Part shown: positions 1 through 40,149 of the stretch, one piece after another
Layout: every line of letters begins with the position of its first letter
How positions within the stretch are numbered: position 1 is the first letter of the stretch
DNA from: a virus
Virus record (IMG/VR): IMGVR_UViG_3300005286_000001
Location: 1 to 40,149 of that record
Length of the DNA stretch: 40,149 nucleotides
Direction: 5' to 3' (one strand)
Program-made: the position numbers and the translations under genes
The notes under the pieces: model-generated
The model's database searches: none
Seen by the model: the letters and a program-made list of their open reading frames with translations, nothing else
What the model was told of the DNA's origin: nothing

Positions 1-40
1 CGTTATGAGCGGCCGGCTCTAACCATTGAGCTACTGGCCC
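1..40 (-). tRNA. 5' half of a tRNA with anticodon CAT (Met or lysidine-type Ile2), cut by the window edge
   Basis: Reverse complement of 1-40 is GGGCCAG-TA-GCTC-AATGGTTA-GAGC-C-GGCCG-CTCATAA-CG. This gives the acceptor 5' strand, a canonical D arm with GG in the loop, the anticodon-stem 5' strand and a 7-nt loop CU-CAU-AA. The 3' half would lie left of position 1 and is not visible. Confidence 0.7.
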
Positions 41-69
41 ATCAAGGACTTAGGTCACTCGCCAAGCGC

Positions 70-91
70 CGTAGCACAGATATAGCACAGA
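70..91 (+). repeat. 22-mer CGTAGCACAGATATAGCACAGA (two tandem TAGCACAGA units); putative integrase arm-type site
   Basis: The exact 22-mer occurs three times: 70-91, 39936-39957 and 40109-40130. The first and third copies lie inside the terminal repeats. Confidence 0.5.
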
Positions 92-185
92 TACGGCGGC
101 CGGCCGGGGCCTTCATGGCACAGCCGGACGGCTCCGGCAAGAAGCGGTCGACGCACAAATGACCCGCTTTGAGCGCCGCGGCCGT

Positions 186-237
186 CTCGTCGCTATAATG
201 ATGGTGGTGTGGGTGGTGGTTGTGATCGGGATGTGGA
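186..237 (-). terminator. C-rich, G-poor tract after the last late gene; candidate rut (Rho-dependent termination) site
   Basis: In the minus-sense RNA, 237 down to 194 reads CCACATCCCGATCACAACCACCACCCACACCACCATCATTATA. By hand count these 44 nt contain about 21 C and 1 G. No hairpin followed by a T-run is present after the stop at 238. Confidence 0.3.
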
Positions 238-558
238 TCACATCTTGAACCGATCGTCCTCCCCGACGCCGCGCCGCTGATAGGCGATCAAGAACAGGAC
301 GCAACACCCGGCGTGCGCCAGATGGGAAAGGCCGGTCTCGGGATCCCGGTCCTGCCCCATGGACCACGCGAAGATGTGCCGGAGCGCGGCGCCGATGAGG
401 CGGGACCACCGCATGCCGCCGCACCAGTTGTGCTCGCCGTACTTCTGCGCCCCGAAGGCCAGAACGTCGGCAACCTCTGCCAAGGCATCGAAGGGCAGAA
501 GGTCGAGCCGCGTCTTGCCGCCGTCGAATTTGACGGCCGTGTCATTGCTATCAGTCAT
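238..558 (-). CDS. dATP/dGTP pyrophosphohydrolase-like protein (DUF5664 / all-alpha NTP-PPase type)
   Basis: ORF 238-705 trimmed to the internal ATG at 558, because the upstream 49 codons are R/H/G-rich. The product MTDSNDTAVKFDGGKTRLDL...FGAQKYGEHNW...GLSHLAHA matches the family signature as I remember it. Confidence 0.6.
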   Translation of the reverse strand: MTDSNDTAVKFDGGKTRLDLLPFDALAEVADVLAFGAQKYGEHNWCGGMRWSRLIGAALRHIFAWSMGQDRDPETGLSHLAHAGCCVLFLIAYQRRGVGEDDRFKM

Positions 559-10325: not shown

Positions 10326-12073
10326 CTGTTCGGATTCGCGGGGTCGCCGCCGCGGAAGACGTAGCCGTCCATAACCGTGCCGGGCTGCGGCGGCGCTACG
10401 CTCCCCTGCTGCGCCCCTCCCGGTTGACCTTGCCCGGGGCCCGCGCCGAGGGCCTGCGCCACTGCCGCCTCATCCGCGGGCGTGAACAGCGGGTTAGCCG
10501 CCGACCATTCCGCCAGCCGGTCATAAAAGCCCTCGTCGAGTCGCTTGTTTTCGCGAATGTAGTCACGGCGGAGCTGGTCCACCTCCACCGACCGCTGCGC
10601 CATGCGCCGCATGTAGTCGATGATGATGCGGTTGGCGCCTTCCGTCCGCTCAAGGCCGGGCACGGACTGCTGCAGGAACTCTCGGTCCTTGTCGGAGAGT
10701 GCGCCCGGCATGCCGGCGCCGCCGCTCGGATTGCGCAGCTCAAGGGCGAACTGGTTGCTGATGGCGTTGATCGCCTCCGGGCCCGACAGGTCGCCGACGT
10801 CAAAGCCCATCGCCTTCGCCATGCGCTTGGCCTGCAGAACGAGGTTCGCGCCCGCGCCGGTATAGACGTTCGGATCGCCCAGAATGCCTTCCATACGCGA
10901 GAGCACCGCGACCTTGCGACGGCCGTCTGCCGCGCCGTCGATGATCTCCTTGTTGAGCTGGGCGAACTGCTTGCCCATCTCCTCGTCGTATTTTGTCTCG
11001 CCCTTCCCGACGTTGACGTTCGTGGCCCCGGCCCGGCGAAGCTCCTGCTGATAGTCCATGAACGTGCCGGCATAACCCTGCTGCCGGGCGAACAGGTAGC
11101 CGCGCATGGCATCGGTCGGCTTGCCCTGATCCAGCCGTTCCTTGAGCGCCATGTCGATGAGGTCTTGCCTCTCCTTCGGCAGGCCTCGCATGCCCCGGAG
11201 CTGCTGGAGCTGTTCCGTGGAGAGGTTCGGGAGGATCGTCGGGCCCGTCTGGACCGGTGCAGCGCCTTGCGGGATGGCGAAGCCCTGCGCCGGCGTACCG
11301 CCCGCCATCGGGATATCGGCCTGTGCGACCTGCGTGCGGGGAGCCGCCCCAGTAAACCCGCGCTGAATACGGCTCGCAGCCTCGGCAACCGTCAGGGGAC
11401 GATCCCCATCGAAGAACATGGTACGGTTGGCCGCGACAGCGCGCGGATCGACCACATCCGCCGCCAGAACGGTCGGATCCTGCTGCAGGGCGGACAGGAA
11501 ATTGCGGGCCCCACCCGCGCCGAGGAAGTGCGCCGTGTAGAGGTTGGCGTCAGACGGGGTGATACCGGCCGCCTGAAGCGCCTTGCGGTTGTCTTCCGTG
11601 AACGCCTGGATTGCCCGTTCCTGCTGAGCGGGGTCCGTGCGGCCGTCCGGCGTCAGTCCGAGCTGCGGGTATTTCCGGGCGAGATCCGCCCACGTCCCGG
11701 CGGTGAACTGATAACGCCCCGTGGCGGTCGAATTCGGGTTACGAGCCGCGTCATTGCCGCCGCTCTCACGGGAGCGGAGCGTGCTGAGGTAGCCCCCGCC
11801 AAGGTCGCCAAGCGAAAGCGGCTGCGCAGACGTTGCGCCCCCGCCCATCATGGACTGCCATGCCTGATCGGCGGCGGCCTGCGACTGCATGTTCTGGCCG
11901 AGCGACGCCAACTCCATCTGCGTCTTCTGCTTGCCCAGATCGGCAAGCTCGCGCTTCAACTGCTGGTCCTGCGCCTGATTGAAGGCGCCGAAGAACGCGT
12001 TGGGCAGGTTCGCCAGCATCTGGTCGATGCGGGGATACTGGGTCGTGAGATCGTGGATGACCAACCGCGCCAT
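10307..12073 (-). CDS. Internal virion / ejection protein with a lytic transglycosylase domain
   Basis: 588 aa. The motif RESGGNDAARNPNSTATGRYQFTAGTW resembles the lysozyme-like E-S-G...G-x-Y-Q-F...T-W signature. Confidence 0.75.
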   Translation of the reverse strand: MARLVIHDLTTQYPRIDQMLANLPNAFFGAFNQAQDQQLKRELADLGKQKTQMELASLGQNMQSQAAADQAWQSMMGGGATSAQPLSLGDLGGGYLSTLRSRESGGNDAARNPNSTATGRYQFTAGTWADLARKYPQLGLTPDGRTDPAQQERAIQAFTEDNRKALQAAGITPSDANLYTAHFLGAGGARNFLSALQQDPTVLAADVVDPRAVAANRTMFFDGDRPLTVAEAASRIQRGFTGAAPRTQVAQADIPMAGGTPAQGFAIPQGAAPVQTGPTILPNLSTEQLQQLRGMRGLPKERQDLIDMALKERLDQGKPTDAMRGYLFARQQGYAGTFMDYQQELRRAGATNVNVGKGETKYDEEMGKQFAQLNKEIIDGAADGRRKVAVLSRMEGILGDPNVYTGAGANLVLQAKRMAKAMGFDVGDLSGPEAINAISNQFALELRNPSGGAGMPGALSDKDREFLQQSVPGLERTEGANRIIIDYMRRMAQRSVEVDQLRRDYIRENKRLDEGFYDRLAEWSAANPLFTPADEAAVAQALGAGPGQGQPGGAQQGSVAPPQPGTVMDGYVFRGGDPANPNSWERVR

Positions 12074-15360: not shown

Positions 15361-16506
15361 TTACGCCGTGGCAGGCGCGGCGTTGAACACGGTGACGATG
15401 CCCCACTGCACAAGGTCGCTCGTCGTAGTGTCCTTGAAGAACACCTTGCCGACGCCATAGGCCATGTCGATGCCGACGCCCTTCTTGAACTGGTAGTCGG
15501 TTTCGTCGAGCTTCGTCGGCTCGGGCATCTGGCCCCACACGAGGCCCAGCGCCGAGCGGCCGCACATGAACGACATGGATACGTCAACGCCGCTGTCGCC
15601 CGCTCCGGCCACGAGAGCGAGCTTGTCGATCTCGGGAACCTTGCGGATGATGACGTTGTCGTAGAGCAGGTCGCCCTCGCGGAAGATCGGGTTGTTCCGC
15701 CAGGACGAGCCCTCACGGGGGCGCGCATCCTTGTTGGCCTGGTAGATCTCGGGATCGGCCCAGGCATCGCGGTAGGCGCGCGAGCCCACGAACATGACGA
15801 AGCGCTCGTAGCCGTCGTCGGTGCTCAGGGGCTCGATCTTCGGGTCAGCGTCTTCCGCCTTCTCGCGGGCGAGACGGACGGTCGCGGCGCTGAAGCGGTC
15901 GTCGGTCGCCGTCAGGCTCGCAAGGGCCGTGGCATGCGTGGCGTTGTAGTTGCTGAACGCGTTGCCGTACAGAATGCGGTCCTGGTTGGCCTGGTTCCAC
16001 GTGTTGCGCTGCGTGGCGTTGGCGGCCGAGTACAGGATGCCATTCACGCGCTGGCCGTTGGGGGAGCCGAGGCCGGCCGGCGGGGATTCGCTCGGGAGCG
16101 ACGCCATCGCCAGAACCAGTTCGTCACGCTGCAGCGACTTGCCCCAGTCGGAGAGAAGCGGCTGCGCCTGCGCGAACAGGTCAAACGAGCCCTTCTTGAT
16201 CTCCGCCTTGGTGGCCGTGACAGCGTTGCGACCCCAGTCGAGCCAGAACCGGCAACCGTAGTTGTCGATGGCCTCCTCGTTGCCCGTCAGCGTCCCCGAG
16301 CCGATGGCCGTGTTGCGGAGGGCCTTGATCAGGGGAACGTTGATCTGGTCGCCGCCGAACTTGCCGGTTTCGAGGAACGTGCGGATGACGGCGGTGCCAT
16401 CGTTGCCCATGTAGGGCGAGAACATGTTGCCGCGAACGAACTCGCGGATGATGTTGTTGCGGAAAATAATCCCGCGGTTGTTGGCCTGAATGGTAGAGAC
16501 AGCCAT
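15361..16506 (-). CDS. Major capsid protein
   Basis: ORF trimmed to the ATG at 16506, preceded by GAGGA. It encodes 381 aa and follows the scaffold gene. The N-terminus MAVSTIQANNRGIIFRNN...FSPYMG resembles podophage HK97-fold capsid families (from memory). Confidence 0.8.
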   Translation of the reverse strand: MAVSTIQANNRGIIFRNNIIREFVRGNMFSPYMGNDGTAVIRTFLETGKFGGDQINVPLIKALRNTAIGSGTLTGNEEAIDNYGCRFWLDWGRNAVTATKAEIKKGSFDLFAQAQPLLSDWGKSLQRDELVLAMASLPSESPPAGLGSPNGQRVNGILYSAANATQRNTWNQANQDRILYGNAFSNYNATHATALASLTATDDRFSAATVRLAREKAEDADPKIEPLSTDDGYERFVMFVGSRAYRDAWADPEIYQANKDARPREGSSWRNNPIFREGDLLYDNVIIRKVPEIDKLALVAGAGDSGVDVSMSFMCGRSALGLVWGQMPEPTKLDETDYQFKKGVGIDMAYGVGKVFFKDTTTSDLVQWGIVTVFNAAPATA

Positions 16507-16676
16507 TGTCTTGTCCTCAAGACACGACAAAGCGCCCGCTCAGGGCTGCCCTGTCGGGTGTGATCGGTCTGCCCGGTCCTCAGCCGGGCGCTCGGGTTCG
16601 GATTGGCCGTCTCGTGGCCCTACGTGCGGTTGCGCCGTATCGTGGCGCGGACGAGAGTGTCGCGGCGGCCTTGTGA

Positions 16677-18159: not shown

Positions 18160-20076
18160 CTACGAACCGATTGCGGCCGCCTGGGAAGCCGCCATTTGCG
18201 CATTGGTGCGCGCCGCCTGCATGGCAATGGCGGCGTCGGCCTTCATGCGGTCGATCTCCATCTGATGGACGGCCTTCTCGCGCTCGATCTGCATGTCGTT
18301 GGCGGCCTTTTCCCGCGCCAACTGCATGTCGTTCTCGGCCTTGATGCGCGAGGCCTCGGCATTGATCGCCGCCCGCTCCCGCTCAAGCTGGATATCGGCC
18401 TGCTTGGCCTGCATATCCATCTGCAACTTGACCTGCTCGAGCTCCATCTTGGCCTGCTGTGCCAGAGCCTCCGGGTTCGGCTGCTGCTGTGCCTGTTCGA
18501 GGATCTCCTCGATCTGCTTCTTCATGCTGCCGGGGAGATTTGCCATCTTGAGGATGGCAACAGGCGGAATCGGCATGCCGGCGCCGGCCAACTGCACGAG
18601 CGTGTCGAACACGTCCTGCATCAGCGTCACCGTGTCCGGCCCCTCGTCGATGATGATATCCACGTCGAGAGAGCCGAGCGGGTTCTGCAGCGTGGGGACG
18701 CCCGTGCTCATGTCGATGCGGTTAACGGGCAGGAAGTCCGGGATTCCCTCGTTGTCCGTCACCCGGATCCAGCGCTCCGCCGTCCAGTAGCGCTGGATGT
18801 TGTTCCAGACGGCCCGATAGACGCGCATCTTCCAGTCGCGGAAGGCGATCAGGAACGGCCCGATCTTGCCAAGGGCGGCCTGCTGCAGGAGCTGGATGGC
18901 GCGGCCCGAAAGGTCCTTGGGGGCACCGCCATCGACAGCCACGGGCGGGGAGAGCCCGCGACGGTCCATCTGGCTCTTGGCCTCCTGCAACATCTCAAGG
19001 TTGCCGGCAGCCTGAGCGGCGTTGTTCTCCTCCCGGACATTCGCGCCGGGGGGCAGGAGGACAATGCCGGTCGGTCTGTTGATGCGCTGCGCCAGATCCT
19101 GTTCGTTCTCGACCGATCCCGCCTCGATATAGACGCGCTTGGCATTGAGCGCGTGCAGACCGAGCGATCGGCGGGAATTGATCTCGTCCTGGATCGGCTT
19201 CAGGTTGCGAACGAAGCCGTAACGGTCGCCTTCCCAGTCCACGTGCGCTGAGAAGACGATGTACCGCGAGATGGTGCGGCCCTTCTCGTCATAGAAAGGC
19301 GAGTTGCCTTCATCGAGAAGCAGATTCCCCGTGTAGAACGCGAATTTCCACTCGCCGCCCCGGATGTACCAGTGCTCGACGAGGCGGATCTTCCGCTCGT
19401 TCGTGATGACCCAGAGGTTCTGGCGCTGGTTGAGGTTCCATTCCTCCTGCCCGAAGCCCTGAGTGCCGAGCGCCTCGAGGGCCTCGGCATGGTCGGGGAA
19501 CATCGACTTCGCCACGTCGATATCGACCCACTTCGAGACGCCCATGTAGCGGGCATCCGAAAAGTCCTGCTCGATGGAGCGCGGGTCGTAAAAGAACGTC
19601 TCGGCATCGACGGTCTTGAGCTGGATATCCGGGTCGCCGTTATCGCCCTCGACGAAAGACATCTCCACGCCAGCGACGGCATCGATGCCCGCCGCTCGCG
19701 CAACACGAGGCGTCAGGTACTGCCACTGAACCGTGTCCATCGCGTAGCGCAGGACGCTTGTCGCAACCTCGGCGCCGTCCTCGTGAGCCGGCGTGCGTGG
19801 GTAGGCTTTCGGATCCTGCCTCAGGCGCTCGACGGTGCCGACAATGCCGTCGATCTGCGGCTGGACCTCGTTGTAGACGACCGCCGGCTGCCCACGGTCC
19901 CGCAGCACCTGCAATTGCTCTGGCGTGAGCTGGTCGCCGTCATAGTACCGGCGCGCAACCTCGGTTTCCTCACGCTCACGGGCCTTGTTCGTCCAGTAAT
20001 CCTGATGGCGGCGGATGAGGGTGCTGAGGGAGGCGAAGTTGCCGTCCCTCTCATCCGTGGTCGTGAGTTGCGCCAT
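18160..20076 (-). CDS. Portal protein
   Basis: 638 aa directly after terL; the start overlaps the terL stop (TAATG). It has a long C-terminal coiled coil like a P22-type portal barrel. Confidence 0.85.
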   Translation of the reverse strand: MAQLTTTDERDGNFASLSTLIRRHQDYWTNKAREREETEVARRYYDGDQLTPEQLQVLRDRGQPAVVYNEVQPQIDGIVGTVERLRQDPKAYPRTPAHEDGAEVATSVLRYAMDTVQWQYLTPRVARAAGIDAVAGVEMSFVEGDNGDPDIQLKTVDAETFFYDPRSIEQDFSDARYMGVSKWVDIDVAKSMFPDHAEALEALGTQGFGQEEWNLNQRQNLWVITNERKIRLVEHWYIRGGEWKFAFYTGNLLLDEGNSPFYDEKGRTISRYIVFSAHVDWEGDRYGFVRNLKPIQDEINSRRSLGLHALNAKRVYIEAGSVENEQDLAQRINRPTGIVLLPPGANVREENNAAQAAGNLEMLQEAKSQMDRRGLSPPVAVDGGAPKDLSGRAIQLLQQAALGKIGPFLIAFRDWKMRVYRAVWNNIQRYWTAERWIRVTDNEGIPDFLPVNRIDMSTGVPTLQNPLGSLDVDIIIDEGPDTVTLMQDVFDTLVQLAGAGMPIPPVAILKMANLPGSMKKQIEEILEQAQQQPNPEALAQQAKMELEQVKLQMDMQAKQADIQLERERAAINAEASRIKAENDMQLAREKAANDMQIEREKAVHQMEIDRMKADAAIAMQAARTNAQMAASQAAAIGS

Positions 20077-21527
20077 TAGATCACCGTTGCTGCGGTTGAC
20101 GGCCTACGGTTGATGCGGGAGAACCCGGTCTGCGGTTGCGGGCGGCTCGTGACCTGGCGCACCCACGGGCGCGACATGCAGGCGTACCGCCACTCATCCG
20201 CGGCGTGGTCTTCCATGTCCGTGTCAAGGTCTTCGGGCCTGTCCTGATCGTGCTGCAGCATCGGGATCGTCCGAATGCTGTCGGTGCACGTCGAGAAACA
20301 GACGATCATCGGCCTATCTTCGGCCTCACCAACGAGCCGAGAACGCATCGCATCCCAGCCGCCCATCGCGCCGCGCTGCGACACGCGCTTGTTGTCGGCC
20401 CCGCGGAAGAACAACTTTCCGCCCGAGCCCTTCGTGATCCGCTCGGCAATCGAAGGGCCGCCATCCTCGGCAAAAGCCGCCGGGTCGAGAACGCCATACG
20501 AGAGCTTCGGATCCGACGCAGCTCGCGAGGCCAACCCCTCGCCAACCGCCTCGGCGTGCAACTTCAGTCCCACGTTCGGCTTGCCGGCAACTGCGCCGTA
20601 CCACTCGCGATAGCGAACGAGACAACCCCGCGGCAGGATGATCCCGCTTTCCGTCGTGTAGTCGTCCGATACGACCGCCCACCAACCGAAGCTGAAGGGC
20701 TTGGCAGAGCCCCAGTCACCGGACAGGAACCGCATCCAGTCGCCCGGCACCTCGAATGGCCGTATGACGTGGCGCTTCTCACTCCACTCCGCGAAGAACG
20801 CTCCTTCGATGGCGCTCCAGTCGCCCTCTAGCCACGCCCTGATCAGCTCGGCTCCGCCCACCATGCGCAGGCGGCTGATGTATCCAGGGTCATTCGCCAT
20901 CAGGATCGCGTTGTCCGTGATCCGTGACGGGATGACCGCCATCTTGTGCAATGTGCCGTCGTCGAGCGTCCGCGTGACGACCTGCGGTCCCCTTGGGAAG
21001 GGATGCAGCCTGTAGCGCTCCCGCAACCATGCTTGGCCTGGGCCGCCGGGGTTGGCGGTAAGGATCATCTGGACGGGCACGCCATGGGCCGAGCGCAGCA
21101 CACCGAACAGCTTGTCGATAGCGCGGCTGTCGGGATACTGCCCCGCCTCTTCAACCCACACGTCGGTGACGTTGCGCCCCTGCCATTCGTCGGCATCCTT
21201 GGGCTTGTCGAGGTATCTAAACGAGACCCGACCGCCATTCGGCATGCGCCAGATCAGCTTGCTCTCGTTGTAGACCCCGCCGAGAGGCCCGTAGATCTCC
21301 TTGCTGCGCTCTATCGCGTCTTCCGACGACACCGTCGTGCGCCGGAACATGATCGCGTTGAAGTGTTTGCCGTAGCGCCGTTCCTTCAGCGCCCATTTGC
21401 CGAGGACGCCGTCCGTCTTTCCGCCGCCGCGAGCGCCCCCGAAAAAGATCTCCGATAGCGGGCAGTCAACGAGCGCCTTCTGTGGGCCCGGCTGAGGCGC
21501 CCACAGTATGCTCGGCTTCCCATTCAT
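20076..21527 (-). CDS. terL: Terminase large subunit
   Basis: 483 aa. Walker A is GGARGGGKT and a Walker B-like motif is DVWVEEAG. A C-terminal nuclease-like region is present. Confidence 0.9.
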   Translation of the reverse strand: MNGKPSILWAPQPGPQKALVDCPLSEIFFGGARGGGKTDGVLGKWALKERRYGKHFNAIMFRRTTVSSEDAIERSKEIYGPLGGVYNESKLIWRMPNGGRVSFRYLDKPKDADEWQGRNVTDVWVEEAGQYPDSRAIDKLFGVLRSAHGVPVQMILTANPGGPGQAWLRERYRLHPFPRGPQVVTRTLDDGTLHKMAVIPSRITDNAILMANDPGYISRLRMVGGAELIRAWLEGDWSAIEGAFFAEWSEKRHVIRPFEVPGDWMRFLSGDWGSAKPFSFGWWAVVSDDYTTESGIILPRGCLVRYREWYGAVAGKPNVGLKLHAEAVGEGLASRAASDPKLSYGVLDPAAFAEDGGPSIAERITKGSGGKLFFRGADNKRVSQRGAMGGWDAMRSRLVGEAEDRPMIVCFSTCTDSIRTIPMLQHDQDRPEDLDTDMEDHAADEWRYACMSRPWVRQVTSRPQPQTGFSRINRRPSTAATVI

Positions 21528-24550: not shown

Positions 24551-25488
24551 GCGGCTTTCCTTTCGTCGATGAGAACGTTGTTCCAGTCGTGACCCAGCGT
24601 CTTCGGTATTTCGACCTCGACGCCGAAGCCTTCGTTCGTGAGTTTCTTGGCCAGGGCGTAGGCCGCCTCCTGCCCGGTGAATGACGTGTCGTTGTCCCCG
24701 AAGATCACGACCGTCTCGACCTCGCGCGGGGCGATCCAGTTCGCCAGCATCGTGGCGTTGAGGGCGGCCCACACCGGCATGTCGAACAGCTTGGACGCCG
24801 CGAATGCCGTCTCGATCCCCTCCGCAATTCCGAGGATCTTTTCGTGCCGCATCAGGCGCACCGCCGAGCCTGGGGCAATCTTGCCGGGCATGAACATGCG
24901 GGGCTTGGCGACATGCGCCTTGTGGCCGTCCTCCGTCAGGAACGTCCGATGGATCGTCACCGGGTTCCCATCGGGGTCCATGACCATGGAGACCATCGCC
25001 GGCAACTTGGCGGGCTTCGGGGCCGGATAGTGGGCACTCAGGCACGTCCTGATCGAGGGCGGCACATCCACCACGCCTACGCGGTTGACGAGGTAGCGCC
25101 ACACCGGGTCGCCTTGCTCGACCTTCCGAGAGGAGCGCCACAGGTCGTTGAGACGTCGCCTTACCTCATCCGTGCCCATCTCCTGCCGCACCGGAACGGC
25201 CGGAGCCGCCCCGATGACTTCCTCAATGCGAACCGCCGCAGTGTGGAAATCCCAGCCGTTCACCCTCATGACGAGCTCGAACCCGTCACCTGCCCCGCAC
25301 TGCGAGCAGATCCACGTGCCGCGTCCCTCCTTGTCGTCGAACCGAAACCGGTCCTTGCCGCGCTGGCACATGGGGCAGGCTGTATGCCGGCCGGTGAGGT
25401 ATTCCGGGCCAACGCCGAGCATCGGCAGGAGAGAGGGCCAGCGGCCAATTGCGCGATCCCTAAGCGGCGACATTGGCAGCCTCCGCAA
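24547..25488 (-). CDS. DNA primase (zinc-ribbon plus Toprim type)
   Basis: CPMCQRGKDRFRFDDKEGRGTWICSQCG is a primase-helicase zinc-binding motif. GIAEGIETA...VIFGDNDTSFTGQEAA is Toprim-like. Confidence 0.8.
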   Translation of the reverse strand: MRRLPMSPLRDRAIGRWPSLLPMLGVGPEYLTGRHTACPMCQRGKDRFRFDDKEGRGTWICSQCGAGDGFELVMRVNGWDFHTAAVRIEEVIGAAPAVPVRQEMGTDEVRRRLNDLWRSSRKVEQGDPVWRYLVNRVGVVDVPPSIRTCLSAHYPAPKPAKLPAMVSMVMDPDGNPVTIHRTFLTEDGHKAHVAKPRMFMPGKIAPGSAVRLMRHEKILGIAEGIETAFAASKLFDMPVWAALNATMLANWIAPREVETVVIFGDNDTSFTGQEAAYALAKKLTNEGFGVEVEIPKTLGHDWNNVLIDERKAA

Positions 25489-26938
25489 CCTTCTTCTGCC
25501 GCTTCGCCCAGCGGATCATCCCGGCCTTGACGTAGTTGCGAACCTCCTCGTCGGGCTCCATGCGCATGAAGTGCAGGCCACGCGGCCAGACCTTGAACTT
25601 GTCGCGAAACTTGTGGGCCACCCAGCCGCCGGAATAGCCGCGCTCGTCGGCGATCTTCATGAGCATCGAATACCAGCGCTGCTTGACCTCCCGGCTCGCC
25701 TCCTTGCCCTTCGGCGTCAGCTCGACAAGGTCTCCGTCCTCGCACTCGATCTGCGATTGCCGCTGGGGGGCGAAGCCACAACACGGGCATTTCGCGACCT
25801 TCGGCGGCTTGAGGAATGAGCATTGCGGGCATTCCTTCGGGAGCGGTTCCTTGCGCTCAGTTGCCGCGCTCTTGCGGGCCTTCCCGTCGTCGAGACGGTC
25901 GTGATGGATATCCGTCACGAACCCGAGCTTCAGGGTCGTGTCGCTGTGGTCGAGGATGAGGCAGTCGTCCTTGCCGTCCGCCGTCCGGAGGCCGCGCCCG
26001 ATGATCTGGACGTAGAGCATTTCCGAGCGCGTCGGCCGGGCGAGGATGATGCAGCGCACGTCCCAGTCCACGCCCGTGGTCAGGCATCCGACGTTGCAGA
26101 CGACCTTGACCTCCCCGGAATGGAACCGTTTGCGGATGGCCTCGCGCTCGCCGGTGGAGGTGTACGCATCGACATAGGCAGTGCTCACACCCTCCTCGGC
26201 GAACCGCGTCTGGATGTGCCGGGCATGGGCTCGGTCCACGGCGAAGCACAGCGTCGGCCGCCCCTCCCCCTTCGCAAGCCACGTCTCGACGACATCGGCC
26301 ACGAGCGCGGTCTTGTTCATGGCCTCGCCGAGGTCGCCCTCGTGGTAGTCTCCGGCAACGGTCCTAACGCCCGTCAGGTCGGGATGAGACGGGGCGAACA
26401 CCCGGAAGCGGGAGAGATATCCAGCCTCGATCAGGTCGCCCGTCGTCGCCGCGATCAGCAGGTCATCGAACAGCTTGCCGAGACCGCGCGTCCACGGGGT
26501 GGCCGACAGGCCGATAAACGGGACCCTTTCCCAGCCAGTGGCTGACATCCAGCGCCCGTAGAGGTCGAACACCCGATGCGCCTCGTCGATCACGACCACG
26601 TCGGCCGCCGGGATCTCGCGACGGGCGAGCGTCTGGACGCTGGCAACCTGCACCGGGCGGCTCGCATTGGTGAGTTCGTGCGCCCCCTGGATCACACCCA
26701 CGTCGTGGATGCCCTCGTTCCAGAGCGCCATCACGGTCTGATCGACGAGCGACAGGGCCGGGACGGTGAAGATCACCCGGTTGCCCTTCGCGAGGGCGCC
26801 CTCGACGATGGCGGCGCCCAGCATCGTCTTGCCGAAGCCGGTCGGGGCCTGCAGGAGGGGGCGGCGCTTGCCCGAACCGAGGGAGCGGCGCAGGAGGTCG
26901 ATGGCGCGGGTCTGGTGGGGACGAAGCTCACGCCTCAT
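25460..26938 (-). CDS. SF2 DEAD/DEAH-box DNA helicase
   Basis: Motifs APTGFGKT (Walker A), VIDEAH, SATP and QIIGRGLR. A C-terminal Cys cluster is present (CPQC...CPCC). Confidence 0.85.
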   Translation of the reverse strand: MRRELRPHQTRAIDLLRRSLGSGKRRPLLQAPTGFGKTMLGAAIVEGALAKGNRVIFTVPALSLVDQTVMALWNEGIHDVGVIQGAHELTNASRPVQVASVQTLARREIPAADVVVIDEAHRVFDLYGRWMSATGWERVPFIGLSATPWTRGLGKLFDDLLIAATTGDLIEAGYLSRFRVFAPSHPDLTGVRTVAGDYHEGDLGEAMNKTALVADVVETWLAKGEGRPTLCFAVDRAHARHIQTRFAEEGVSTAYVDAYTSTGEREAIRKRFHSGEVKVVCNVGCLTTGVDWDVRCIILARPTRSEMLYVQIIGRGLRTADGKDDCLILDHSDTTLKLGFVTDIHHDRLDDGKARKSAATERKEPLPKECPQCSFLKPPKVAKCPCCGFAPQRQSQIECEDGDLVELTPKGKEASREVKQRWYSMLMKIADERGYSGGWVAHKFRDKFKVWPRGLHFMRMEPDEEVRNYVKAGMIRWAKRQKKVAEAANVAA

Positions 26939-31329: not shown

Positions 31330-31799
31330 GCAAGCACGTGAAGGTGAAGCCGCTGGAGTGGGTGGCGGCTGACGAAGACGAAGAGGACTACGTCTCCGCT
31401 TTTTCTGAAATAGGCGCCTACAGCATTGAACGGCTGTCCGCTGGCAGTTGGGAGCTAACGGCAGAGCTCCCTTCTGGAGGCGAGTGCTCTTGGTACGTCA
31501 CCATCGAGGCCGCCAAAGCTGCCGCCCAAGCGGATTACGAACGCCGCATCCTCTCCGCCCTAGAGCCCTCCCCCGCCTTCGAGGCGATGGTGGAGGCGTT
31601 GGAGGACGGACGCGTTATCGCTGCGCTCATGCGGGTTCAGCAACAGCTAGATGACCACATCTTCGAACGCGAGAATGAAATCCTGCGGGATGAAGAGCCC
31701 TACCCATTCGAAGACGAGCTTACAGTAGGTATCGACGATTTGTTGCCCGTCTCGCGCGTGATCCGCGCCGCCCTCGCCCTAGCAAGGGGAGAGCGGTGA
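31326..31799 (+). CDS. Hypothetical protein with a VKPLEW-type domain
   Basis: 157 aa. It shares VKPLEWV and a downstream pattern with the product of 37026-37502. Confidence 0.6.
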   Translation: MSKHVKVKPLEWVAADEDEEDYVSAFSEIGAYSIERLSAGSWELTAELPSGGECSWYVTIEAAKAAAQADYERRILSALEPSPAFEAMVEALEDGRVIAALMRVQQQLDDHIFERENEILRDEEPYPFEDELTVGIDDLLPVSRVIRAALALARGER

Positions 31800-31800
31800 G

Positions 31801-32124
31801 ATGGCGAACTGGCAGAACGTCATTCGGCTGCAGCCCGAATGGGGGCAAGCGAAGTCCGGTGAGATTTCGGTCGCCTCCATGGCCGCCGTAATCGCCAAGA
31901 AGCTTCGCGCCCTCTCCAAAAGTGGCCGTCACCTCGACGATCACAGAGAGGAATTGGAAGACCTGATCGACGAGTTCGAAGACCTGTCGAGGGATCCGAT
32001 GGCCGTCGATGACGATCTCGATGGCCTGATGGGGCAACTCTACGACTGGGGCGACCGCCGGCTCGATAACGACTGGAACGGCAAGAAGCTGTGCTGGATC
32101 GACACGATTAGCGGGAGGCTCTGA
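31801..32124 (+). CDS. Hypothetical acidic protein
   Basis: 107-aa ORF. Confidence 0.55.
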   Translation: MANWQNVIRLQPEWGQAKSGEISVASMAAVIAKKLRALSKSGRHLDDHREELEDLIDEFEDLSRDPMAVDDDLDGLMGQLYDWGDRRLDNDWNGKKLCWIDTISGRL

Positions 32125-37765: not shown

Positions 37766-37979
37766 GATCCCGGAAGACGTGATGGAGATGGCGCGTGAGG
37801 TTTTCGTCGAGTTCGACGAGGACGACAGCCGTGCCAGCATCAAGCTTATAGCGAGTGCCATCATGGCCGAGAGGGAGCGGTGCGCCGCGTTTGCCTACGC
37901 CAAATGGGACTGGCCGCCGAGATGGATCGCGGCATCCCTCCGCGGCGAGAACAGCGCATACGAGGAATTCCGCCCATGA
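37758..37979 (+). CDS. Hypothetical acidic protein
   Basis: 73-aa ORF. Confidence 0.5.
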   Translation: MSEIPEDVMEMAREVFVEFDEDDSRASIKLIASAIMAERERCAAFAYAKWDWPPRWIAASLRGENSAYEEFRP

Positions 37980-38641
37980 CCATCACCACCCAGGCAGTGC
38001 GAGAGATAGTTGAGGCGTTTAGCGACCCCGTACTCAACAAGTCGGCGTCAGCAAAAGCGAGGTGGGCCGCTGCCCTTGTTTCCGACATGCTCCTCGCCCT
38101 CGTCGAGGAAAGGGACAGGCTTTATGCGCGACTCGAAATGGTAGAAGCCTACGACGGCGAAGGAAATCGCCTCTCCGTTGCCCCCTACTCCATCCCTGAC
38201 GGGATCGAGGCGCGTGACGCCACCATTCGACTGCTGGACGACCGCGTGAAGGCCCTCACCGCCCGCGCCGAAGCGGCAGAGGCCGAGAGGGATAGACTGG
38301 CGGCGCAAATCGCCTTCTACGAGCAACTGACCGAGACGAGGAACGGAGAGGTCCGGCATCTGACGGAGCGCGTTCAAGCGGCAGAAGCCGAGAGGGACAG
38401 GCTGGCGGAAGCCAACGCGAAGAAGGCCGACGACATCGTGACCCTAGGGCAGTTGGTCGGGAAGGCAGAAGCCCGCGCCGAAGCGGCAGAGGCGGCGCTG
38501 AGGGACCTTCGATCGAGCGTCAAGTTGGTGCGAGACGAGATGCGGTCCGACGCGTCCATAGACACGGAGGACTGGGAGACCGTGCTCGGTGACGCAATCA
38601 CCGACCGCGCCGCCCTCCAAGGGAGAGACGGAGATGGGTGA
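37976..38641 (+). CDS. Coiled-coil protein with three AEAAEAERDRLA-type repeats
   Basis: Start at the ATG at 37976 (ATGA overlap); 221 aa. Confidence 0.55.
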   Translation: MTITTQAVREIVEAFSDPVLNKSASAKARWAAALVSDMLLALVEERDRLYARLEMVEAYDGEGNRLSVAPYSIPDGIEARDATIRLLDDRVKALTARAEAAEAERDRLAAQIAFYEQLTETRNGEVRHLTERVQAAEAERDRLAEANAKKADDIVTLGQLVGKAEARAEAAEAALRDLRSSVKLVRDEMRSDASIDTEDWETVLGDAITDRAALQGRDGDG

Positions 38642-39041
38642 GAGGGGGGTTGACGACGATACGCCCCTGAGGCTTGCGGACGCGGTCGCCATCGCATTCC
38701 CGATGGGCGGCATGACGGTCAGCGGCTTGCGGCGAGAGCGTGACCGTGGAAGGCTTGCCGTGGAAATCATCGCTGGCAAGGAATTCACGACCTTATCGGC
38801 CATCAGGGAGATGAGACAGCAATGCCTCGCGCAGGGAAAGGCCCCCGCCTCTACCTCAGGCCGCCGCAGCGGGGGGCAGCGGGCAGTTCTCCGGTCTGGA
38901 CCATCAGAGACGGGAACCGATTCATCAGCACTGGATGCGGCCCTGATGCGCGCGAAGATGCTGAAAGGGAGCTTGCCCGATACATCTCGGAAAAGCACGA
39001 CCCCAAGCGCGGCGAACGTGGTCTCGCTCAAGTCCCGATAG
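38634..39041 (+). CDS. HTH protein upstream of int (excisionase / recombination directionality factor candidate); 3' extent uncertain
   Basis: The ATG at 38634 gives PLRLADAVAIAFPMGGMTVSGLRRERDRGRLAVEIIAGKEFTT. The reading frame stays open 220 nt into the int gene in another frame. Confidence 0.45.
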   Translation: MGERGVDDDTPLRLADAVAIAFPMGGMTVSGLRRERDRGRLAVEIIAGKEFTTLSAIREMRQQCLAQGKAPASTSGRRSGGQRAVLRSGPSETGTDSSALDAALMRAKMLKGSLPDTSRKSTTPSAANVVSLKSR

Positions 39042-39934
39042 CCGATGTGGTCAACATCTATCTGACGGATGTTGCTCCCCATAAGTCAGAACCGAGGAAA
39101 ATCGCCGCCAGGGCGATCCGGCTATTGGAGTGGTGGGGCGACAAGACATTGGCCGATGTGACCGGCTCTGCGTGCCGGGCCTATGCAGCCCATCGCGGCA
39201 ATGCTGGAGGCGCACGGCGAGACCTGCAGGACCTGTCAGCGGCCATCCGGCACCACCACAAGGAAGGCCTGCACCGCGCTTCCGTGGCCGTCTGGATGCC
39301 ACCGGCGGGCAAGCGGCGCGAGAGGTGGCTGACGAGATCGGAGATCGCTCGTCTGGTCTGGACCGCGTGGAGAATGCGCGAGCAGATGCGGCGCTCCCAT
39401 TCCGACAAGAATGCGGCTCGCCTCCCGACCCGCAAAAGGACCGGAAAGCATATCGCGCGTGCGATCCTGTTCGCCTATTATACGGGATCCCGCATTGGCA
39501 CGGTGCTGACGGCATCTTGGCACGCGGCGGCCGGGCGGTCCTACATCGACATTGACCGAGGCGTGTTCTACCGCCTGCCAGAGGGCAAGCGGGAAACAGC
39601 CAAGCGCCAGCCGCCCGTTCGCCTATCCTCGCGGATGTTGGCACATGTGCGACGCTGGAGGGACAGAAAGCTCTGCGCTTCGCATGTCGTCGAGTGGGAG
39701 GGCAAGCCAGTTCTGTCCATCAAGACAGCCTTCGGCCGGATCGTGGACGCTGCGGGGCTGGGGGACGACGTCTCGCCGCATACGTTGCGGCATTCGCGTG
39801 CTACCCACATGAAGCAGGCAGGCGTCTCCTCATGGGAGGTTGCGGGAGCCCTCGGCATGTCAGAGGCGATGGTGGAGAAGGTCTACGGGCACCACGATCC
39901 CAACCACCTGTCGCGCGCCGTGAACGCAAGGTGA
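38822..39934 (+). CDS. int: Tyrosine recombinase / phage integrase
   Basis: 370 aa. N-terminus GPRLYLRPP...WTIRDGNRFISTGCG. Catalytic region YYTGSRIG ... HTLRHSRATHMKQAG ... VYGHH. Confidence 0.9.
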   Translation: MPRAGKGPRLYLRPPQRGAAGSSPVWTIRDGNRFISTGCGPDAREDAERELARYISEKHDPKRGERGLAQVPIADVVNIYLTDVAPHKSEPRKIAARAIRLLEWWGDKTLADVTGSACRAYAAHRGNAGGARRDLQDLSAAIRHHHKEGLHRASVAVWMPPAGKRRERWLTRSEIARLVWTAWRMREQMRRSHSDKNAARLPTRKRTGKHIARAILFAYYTGSRIGTVLTASWHAAAGRSYIDIDRGVFYRLPEGKRETAKRQPPVRLSSRMLAHVRRWRDRKLCASHVVEWEGKPVLSIKTAFGRIVDAAGLGDDVSPHTLRHSRATHMKQAGVSSWEVAGALGMSEAMVEKVYGHHDPNHLSRAVNAR

Positions 39935-39935
39935 T

Positions 39936-39957
39936 CGTAGCACAGATATAGCACAGA
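39936..39957 (+). repeat. Integrase-proximal copy of the 22-mer CGTAGCACAGATATAGCACAGA
   Basis: Starts 2 nt after the integrase stop codon. This copy lies outside the 110-bp identity block, so it is phage-specific DNA. Confidence 0.5.
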
Positions 39958-40039
39958 AACGTCGTCACCGGACGTGAACAAACCGGAACATATGACAGTG
40001 CCATCGTTGATTTTAAACGGAAATCAGCTGCGATACGGG

Positions 40040-40079
40040 CGTTATGAGCGGCCGGCTCTAACCATTGAGCTACTGGCCC
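40040..40079 (-). pseudogene. Displaced duplicate of the tRNA(CAT) 5' half, with no 3' half following
   Basis: Same 40 nt as 1-40. The sequence continuing 3' of it (CCCGTATCGCAGCTGATTT, reading down from 40039) breaks the anticodon stem at its third position and has no T arm. Confidence 0.7.
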
Positions 40080-40149
40080 ATCAAGGACTTAGGTCACTCG
40101 CCAAGCGCCGTAGCACAGATATAGCACAGATACGGCGGCCGGCCGGGGC
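40040..40149. repeat. attR-type terminal direct repeat (110 bp)
   Basis: Identical to 1-110. Lies 105 bp downstream of the integrase stop codon. Confidence 0.8.

Follow-up and report, generated by a model that had tools for sequence, protein, structure and literature searches.

The attP of a probably circular temperate phage genome carries the 5′ half of a tRNA(CAT) gene beside a 16-3-like integrase

Textbook accounts, and the prophage and island finders that work from tRNA fragments, assume that an element inserting into a tRNA gene restores the 3′ end of that gene. For the class of integrases acting at the anticodon loop, which Williams is said to have set out in Nucleic Acids Res in 2002, the identity block reportedly runs from the loop to the tRNA 3′ end. 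The anticodon stem-loop is a natural dyad, with two 5-bp arms around a 7-nt loop. The attachment site described here resembles that class in that its identity block ends at the loop, flanked by the symmetric anticodon stem, but differs in that the block runs from the loop to the 5′ end of the tRNA and beyond.

The closest characterised relative of the integrase studied here is Int of rhizobiophage 16-3 (38.6% identity, 98% coverage, E = 5e-59, tblastn). The GenBank record of 16-3 places a functional attP of 260 bp directly after int, with a 23-bp core that is the anticodon stem-loop of tRNA-Pro(CGG). In phage 16-3 the tRNA segment is the 3′ half (positions 29–78) and its 3′ end lies towards int, which places int next to the regenerated gene. 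Both phages have attP directly after the int stop codon, an anticodon stem-loop core and paired repeats in both arms; unlike 16-3, the phage analysed here carries positions 1–40, has the anticodon loop nearest int, targets a tRNA(CAT) and uses another arm motif.

Elements carrying the 5′ part of their target have been recorded. Of the 3,919 islands in Islander, 159 have a 5′ tDNA fragment and the other 3,760 a 3′ one (Hudson, Lau and Williams, PMC4383910), so the configuration is rare (~4%) but already known. In Klebsiella, too, a survey found islands located at the 5′ end of an arg tDNA (10.1101/2020.11.02.365908). As proposed for our phage, the element in these Islander cases carries the 5′ part of the target tRNA and its integration displaces a 5′ fragment; the phage is a further case, within the 16-3 integrase family. 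Neither of the two sources describes an anticodon-loop boundary, a phage copy of the 5′ flank or arm repeats inside such a flank. Nor did we find, in the literature cited here, arm repeats placed inside a phage copy of a tRNA 5′ flank, or switching at the level of a clade among four geometries at one symmetric core. Elements specific for dusA, and SXT at prfC, supply their target gene with a new promoter and 5′ end (PMC8409611). They share the logic proposed here, but their targets are protein-coding and their integrases unrelated, and promoter supply has been shown experimentally for them whereas for our phage it is a proposal. The tRNA-dependent lysogeny of mycobacteriophages likewise involves a tyrosine integrase and an attB whose overlap with a tRNA gene departs from the canonical form; there the core is ~10 bp, the gene is not regenerated and the phage encodes a replacement tRNA (PMC10865867).

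We analysed a window of 40,149 nt, one strand covering positions 1–40,149 of IMG/VR record IMGVR_UViG_3300005286_000001 (Table 1). The phage is a tailed phage, with PHROGs hits for large terminase, portal, major head, head closure, tail proteins, helicase and exonuclease. The 426-aa exonuclease-like protein encoded next to attP is very widespread, with 2,925 homologues at E ≤ 1e-10 among the scored candidates (those listed are 54–94% identical), and is named inconsistently across sources (‘oxidoreductase’, ‘helix-turn-helix’). For the integrase, a precomputed Pfam hit on the exact protein identifies the Phage_integrase catalytic domain (PF00589), and 1,551 homologues reach E ≤ 1e-30. Its gene ends 105 nt before the right copy of a terminal repeat (106 bp from stop to repeat start), and the anticodon loop lies 108–114 nt past the stop codon. 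In the near-identical phage on contig L004 (2952–4252, minus strand), the integrase is called as two genes (295 and 135 aa), which suggests a frameshift or an assembly error. Just upstream of int, inside the ORF at 37880–38641, there is a 49-nt direct repeat (38255–38303 and 38360–38408) with copies that are 80% identical and 105 nt apart.

Table 1 Features of the 40,149-nt window
Feature	Position	Strand	Basis or detail
Left copy of terminal overlap	1–110		Same attP segment as 40040–40149 (core plus whole putative int-distal P′ arm)
Phage homologue of host tRNA 5′ flank	41–143 (first 70 nt also 40080–40149)	−	Global alignment
29-nt block holding P′ arm repeats	70–98 (= 40109–40137)		CGTAGCACAGATATAGCACAGATACGGCG
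Putative P′ arm, two direct TAGCACAGA repeats	72–91 (72–80, 83–91; also 40111–40119, 40122–40130)	+	
Rest of phage genome	111–38821		Early genes on + strand up to int; PHROGs and Pfam labels on identical L004 genes
dATP/dGTP pyrophosphohydrolase-like gene	238–558		
Exonuclease-like gene, 426 aa, next to attP	600–1880	−	PHROG ‘DNA repair exonuclease’
Major head	15361–16530		
Portal	18160–20076		
Large terminase	20076–21527		
Helicase	25460–26938		
Tyrosine integrase, 370 aa, 16-3 Int-like family	38822–39934	+	PF00589
Putative P arm, 29-nt block directly after int stop codon	39936–39964	+	27/29 identical to 70–98; two TAGCACAGA repeats (39938–39946, 39949–39957)
Right copy of terminal overlap	40040–40149		Natural context, adjoining int
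tRNA(CAT) positions 1–40, 5′ half	40040–40079 (also 1–40)	−	Exact match to Chelatococcus tRNA gene
Anticodon loop	40042–40048 and 3–9		
Proposed crossover/core region	40040–40079 together with 40035–40053		Annotated 16-3 attP core = anticodon stem-loop

The two terminal copies are 100% identical and form the sole long repeat within the window; chance cannot account for an exact 110-bp repeat lying exactly at both ends of a sequence. Using exact-protein look-ups with the integrase and the 426-aa protein, we retrieved two contigs, L001 (JGI 2199352012, 7,187 bp) and L004 (ENA ERZ795038 NODE_2219, 13,982 bp), in which the integrase is followed by one 110-bp copy and then by window position 111 onward, the flanks of this single copy being identical to those at window 40039 and 111. 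The same single-copy arrangement was found in three JGI metagenome contigs of a variant phage (L015, L018 and L020). Because one copy joins both ends in independent contigs, the two ‘repeats’ are a single attP, which falls at the contig ends and is consequently written twice. We read the window as a complete, circularly assembled genome of a temperate phage of ~40,039 bp, with a single attP downstream of int, and put the probability of this reading at roughly 75%. In practice, the 40-kb contig is best handled as a circular and complete genome of a phage rather than as a provirus delimited by att sites.

The reverse complement of window 1–40 is GGGCCAGTAGCTCAATGGTTAGAGCCGGCCGCTCATAACG, which equals positions 1–40 of the intact 76-nt tRNA(CAT) gene in Chelatococcus composti, C. 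caeni, C. sambhunathii and a Pseudochelatococcus MAG. This 40-nt block spans the acceptor 5′ strand, the D arm, the 5′ strand of the anticodon stem, the loop CTCATAA and 2 further nt. Phage and host diverge at tRNA position 41, 2 nt past the anticodon loop, where the phage continues with CCCGTATCGC and the host with GTCTGGTTGC. On its minus strand, the 110-bp block therefore consists of tRNA positions 1–40 and 70 bp from the upstream side of the tRNA, reaching position +1 with an exact 5′-end fragment, as in the displaced 5′ fragments of Islander. A preliminary description of this DNA, made from the window alone, had proposed both the composition of the identical ends and the point at which identity stops, and the Chelatococcus gene confirms both. 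Neither ARAGORN nor Rfam detected an intact tRNA at either window end, and Rfam gave no match at gathering score anywhere in the window. ARAGORN reported a 98-nt ‘tRNA-Cys(gca)’ at 31793–31890 (plus strand; also L004 10996–11093), which is probably a false call, as the stretch straddles the junction of two ORFs and Rfam, at gathering score, sees no tRNA in it.

We scanned one genome per species (185,579 species) with the first 38 nt of the 5′ half and obtained only four matches, namely the three Chelatococcus species and the Pseudochelatococcus MAG named above. Each of these genomes has one intact tRNA(CAT), and as the 5′ half occurs only once in each, no lysogen is among them. On the strength of this match, Chelatococcus is the probable host of the phage. 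Host-type metagenome contigs share only 51–54 bp with the phage, not 110. The JGI metagenomes searched for the phage held only attP forms and empty host sites, a search of further collections gave 0 matches in IMG/VR, and no lysogen of the window phage was found in these searches. ARAGORN labels the host tRNA (window 1–40; L009) as Met, although a CAT anticodon may also belong to an initiator or, through lysidine, an Ile2 tRNA. Its C4–G69 and C5–G68 pairs and the length of its D loop seem to resemble those of Escherichia coli ileX. Comparison with presumed E. coli ileX and metT sequences did not separate Met from Ile2. If the host tRNA is a single-copy Ile2 gene, its regeneration would be essential.

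The single-copy junctions bear directly on the preliminary description, which had taken the terminal copies for the attL and attR of an integrated prophage, separate in the host chromosome and bounded by host DNA, with the tRNA 3′ half expected left of position 1. It had itself set against this reading an overlap of a circular contig without host flanks, and the latter is what L001 and L004 display; with a circular, single-copy junction, no 3′ half is to be expected left of position 1. The variant contigs L018 and L020 also cross the junction with one copy, and the window ends at the repeats, with no host DNA outside either copy. The longest recorded contig with the exact integrase or the exact 426-aa protein is in the 20–50 kb class, so the window is most likely the whole contig and its source contig had no host flanks. 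The four species genomes, each with one 5′-half copy, and the host-type contigs sharing 51–54 bp likewise speak against two chromosomal copies of 110 bp. What favours an excised prophage is the shape of the overlap: 110 bp is no usual assembler k-mer overlap, its left edge lies exactly at the point where phage and host tRNA diverge, a contig of core, phage and core could be de Bruijn output from a lysogen, and integrated relatives have such a geometry. Moreover, in three runs the Logan contigs (k = 31) are interrupted precisely at the step from 40039 to 40040, with L002 and L003 stopping at 40069 and L006 and L007 beginning at 1. In those samples, then, the 5′ half also occurs in another context, presumably the host tRNA. 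Host or lysogen sequence probably cut the assembly graph at this point, and such sharing, if it shaped the contig, would leave the attL/attR reading some room. Identity with a particular host might set the edge at position 110, but no host sharing more than 54 bases was found. On balance we consider it unlikely that the window was cut from a prophage at attL and attR.

Contigs with a single collapsed copy would also fit a terminally redundant genome, and some phages do have exact terminal repeats of 100–300 bp. A true direct terminal repeat of linear virion DNA (T7-type packaging), in which the tRNA fragment is incidental, is nevertheless very improbable: the repeat begins at the very base where tRNA identity stops, the block immediately follows int in the layout of the annotated 16-3 attP, and nine related elements carry the same tRNA half in the same place without any terminal position. 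We thus retain the circular genome with a single attP and turn to its relatives.

To place this attP among those of related integrases, we compared the 500 nt after each int stop with intact tRNAs by blast. In 60-odd related loci, the tRNA fragments begin or end at positions 27–33 or 40–43, that is, at the anticodon stem-loop, and four geometries can be distinguished when int is drawn on the plus strand. In type A, tRNA(CAT) positions 1–40, 1–41 or 1–43 lie on the opposite strand with the anticodon loop nearest int; the members are the window, L027 (71% integrase identity), L251 (63%), L250 (62%) and, at 53–58%, L074, L021, L023/L029, L031 and L032. In type B (L026, at 59%, and many more, tRNA-Pro(CGG) users among them), positions 30–76 share a strand with int. 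In type C, int adjoins an intact tRNA that lies on the opposite strand (L046, L048, L056 and L071 for Met; L065 and L096 for Pro). Type D, the geometry of 16-3, carries positions 30–76 on the opposite strand with the 3′ end nearest int (L034, L041, L042, L047, L049, L051, L054 and L070 for Met; L092 for Pro) and is probably the free form of type C. In the 3′-half types, the loop is kept with ~2 nt of the 5′ stem strand. The 5′-half types keep it with 2–3 nt of the 3′ stem strand, except for L251, which keeps all 5 nt of that strand. In L027, a two-gene module (11142–11743) lies between int and the tRNA half, the core being ~680 nt from int; with a NikA-like first gene that also has weak TacA-antitoxin Pfam hits, it may be a toxin–antitoxin pair.

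All nine closest integrase relatives (53–71% identity) are type A. In a rough neighbour-joining tree (no bootstrap) holding the window integrase, 16-3 Int and users of tRNA-Pro and tRNA-Met, type A falls in one subclade with a single type B element, L026, nested inside, and the tRNA-Met users of types C and D form the sister group of that subclade. Two type A elements are clearly integrated. On the Methylorubrum aminovorans chromosome OZ375354.1 (L021), int is followed by the truncated 5′ half and then by host Nramp, LysR and succinate dehydrogenase genes; on an 81-kb metagenome contig (L023), int and the truncated 5′ half are followed by host genes up to rpoD. In L021, int spans about 3,658,619–3,659,764 of the chromosome and the truncated 5′ half about 3,659,837–3,659,877. 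No intact tRNA lies within 10 kb in L021 or L023. In both, the integrase thus adjoins the truncated copy, and it is in these two relatives only that we found what Islander records for such islands, a truncated 5′ fragment on the upstream side with the integrase inside the element. L250 and L031 have phage genes on both sides and represent free or attP forms. Three further points of the preliminary description hold: the phage has the 5′ half and upstream-side DNA in its attachment region in place of the 3′ half, the boundary falls at the anticodon loop, and the integrase adjoins the truncated copy in the integrated relatives. Its statement that surveys find identity blocks covering the 3′ part of the gene was too strong, given the 5′-fragment islands listed by Islander.

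The DNA upstream of the tRNA half is also related to that of the host. Next to the tRNA, the phage flank is identical to that of C. composti for 14 nt and to that of C. caeni for 11 nt; beyond this it is ~65% identical to the host flank over 130 nt. Global alignment of the window P′ side with the host flank gave z = 11 (C. composti) and z = 8 (C. caeni) against shuffles. Phage and host flanks differ about as much as the flanks of different Chelatococcus species do, and their homology continues beyond the 110-bp block as far as about window 143. A 65-nt segment (window 143–207) is absent from the variant phage (L018 and L020), the indel starting at the exact outer edge of the host-like flank. 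Independently of the window, homology also links the P′ flank of L031 with the DNA flanking the tRNA half on the host side in L021 and L074 (z = 6–11); host flanks at type C elements are unrelated to the L031 flank.

Inside this flank, and again directly after int, lie pairs of direct repeats (Table 1). The same two-plus-two layout around the core was found in nine elements (the window, L250, L031, L045, L051, L081, L034, L063 and phage 16-3), with a different motif in each, for example TGGCAAAGG in L250, GACAGAAAC in L031, TCTCCAATG in L045, ATCGTTGGCC in L051, GCCGACG in L081 and AATCATTGCC in 16-3. Variant phage L018, in which bases differ from the window at 40035, 95, 101–103 and 132, keeps both repeat pairs and the core unchanged. 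By analogy with lambda-type integrases, the TAGCACAGA repeats are probably arm-type binding sites of the integrase, in which case the 110-bp block would comprise the core and the whole int-distal arm. The preliminary description had held that the phage must supply the promoter-proximal side of the gene and that this explains the length of the identical block. The homology of the flank to that of the host supports such a supply, while promoter scans found no sigma-70 consensus promoter in either the phage or the host flank, so that for the flank as promoter or leader we can only infer a function. As an account of the long block the idea is incomplete, since the arm-type repeats lie there too; by the lambda analogy, their pairing suggests a second reason for conservation of the 70 bp.

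The same observations can be set against the view that the 5′ half is a relic or a mere recognition sequence and that integration disrupts the tRNA without regenerating it, as in tRNA-dependent lysogeny. The lack of a promoter consensus would agree with this view, as would the fact that a regenerated junction was never observed here. Yet tRNA-dependent lysogeny combines a core of ~10 bp with a phage-encoded cognate tRNA (PMC10865867), whereas this phage has 40 nt of exact tRNA identity, reaching precisely position +1, followed by 11–14 nt of identical flank and then the host 5′-flank homologue. It encodes no cognate tRNA either, the only candidates being the 98-nt ‘tRNA-Cys’ of ARAGORN and none from Rfam. 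With its long identity and no cognate tRNA, the phage does not fit that mode of lysogeny, and the precise 1–40/41 block is kept where integrases are only 53–71% identical. We give a relic very little weight and favour a 5′ half that would rebuild the gene.

We looked for the int-distal junction, where a rebuilt tRNA should have phage DNA upstream, and did not capture it for any type A relative in flanks of up to 10 kb, shorter than the prophages, at the following loci. L074 (int and 5′ half) and L113 (intact tRNA, same IMG genome) are identical in only 41 tRNA nt, and for the genes upstream of the L113 tRNA neither Pfam nor PHROGs gave a phage hit. In both L113 and L163, an intact tRNA is preceded by arm-like repeats, which are perfect in L163; the genes upstream are not recognisably phage, and those flanking L163 are uninformative. 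We also took 55 IMG/VR loci that contain an intact tRNA and looked in them for integrases and for sequence resembling the window, which identified no distal junction: the loci show essentially no similarity to the window, and their few integrase homologues all lie just downstream of the tRNA, in a 3′-side arrangement. Among 80 loci and 3 genome contigs with homologues of the 426-aa protein, none had a tRNA(CAT) nearby, and junction-specific scans for two relatives returned known contigs only.

Some host flanks upstream of this tRNA contain degenerate or perfect tandem repeats like the arm repeats of the phages. They occur in the Chelatococcus flanks L009, L011 and L012, on the host sides of L021 and L074, and in L113 and L163 (for example TCTGTGCGATAGCTGTGCCA in C. 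caeni and, twice, GTTTCTGTCGCC in L163), and are absent from 12 of the 19 distinct flanks of the same tRNA. They may be footprints of earlier 5′-side integrations. On the other side of the gene, the DNA downstream of the host tRNA differs among near-identical C. composti-type contigs (L009/L017 versus L013, L014, L016 and L019), and in L113 (1–5380) the 3′ side of the tRNA is occupied by an element that encodes a type IV coupling protein and an integrase of DUF6538 type. The variable downstream DNA and the L113 element suggest that this tRNA gene is used from both sides by different elements.

Taken in order, attP comprises the int stop, two putative P-arm repeats, a spacer of ~85 nt and the anticodon stem-loop as proposed core, followed by tRNA positions 40 to 1 on the opposite strand and ~100 nt of host-flank homologue with two putative P′-arm repeats. 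We propose that strand exchange by the 16-3-like tyrosine integrase takes place inside the anticodon loop (7 nt) of the Chelatococcus tRNA gene. Integration would then yield a functional gene that takes its upstream flank and 5′ half from the phage and its 3′ half from the host. This rebuilt tRNA would lie at the int-distal end of the prophage, and the host’s own upstream flank and 5′ half would be left truncated next to int, as seen in L021 and L023. Which tRNA half an element carries would be decided by which side of the core is joined to the surviving part of the host gene.

These findings suggest that, at one tRNA(CAT) gene, the 16-3-like integrases of an entire alphaproteobacterial clade do the opposite of restoring a 3′ end, and the phage then has to bring the 5′ half together with whatever drives expression of the tRNA. 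With the same target, related integrases and four att geometries, these elements form a natural series that can be used to ask how orientation and the choice of half evolve at a symmetric core. It is possible, if doubtful, that the int-distal attP arm, with its arm-binding repeats, doubles as the promoter or leader of the regenerated tRNA, and that Chelatococcus and Methylorubrum-type hosts keep footprints of such insertions, in the form of arm repeats that are degenerate or come from foreign lineages. If so, the symmetric anticodon-loop core would allow members of the clade to change the half they supply from 5′ to 3′ and back, as the position of L026 among the 5′-half users would illustrate. 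Repeated integration from the 5′ side, with the prophage then lost by homologous and not by site-specific recombination, would step by step replace the DNA upstream of the host tRNA with phage DNA. The locus thereby raises the question of whether phages rewrite the upstream regions of host tRNA genes.
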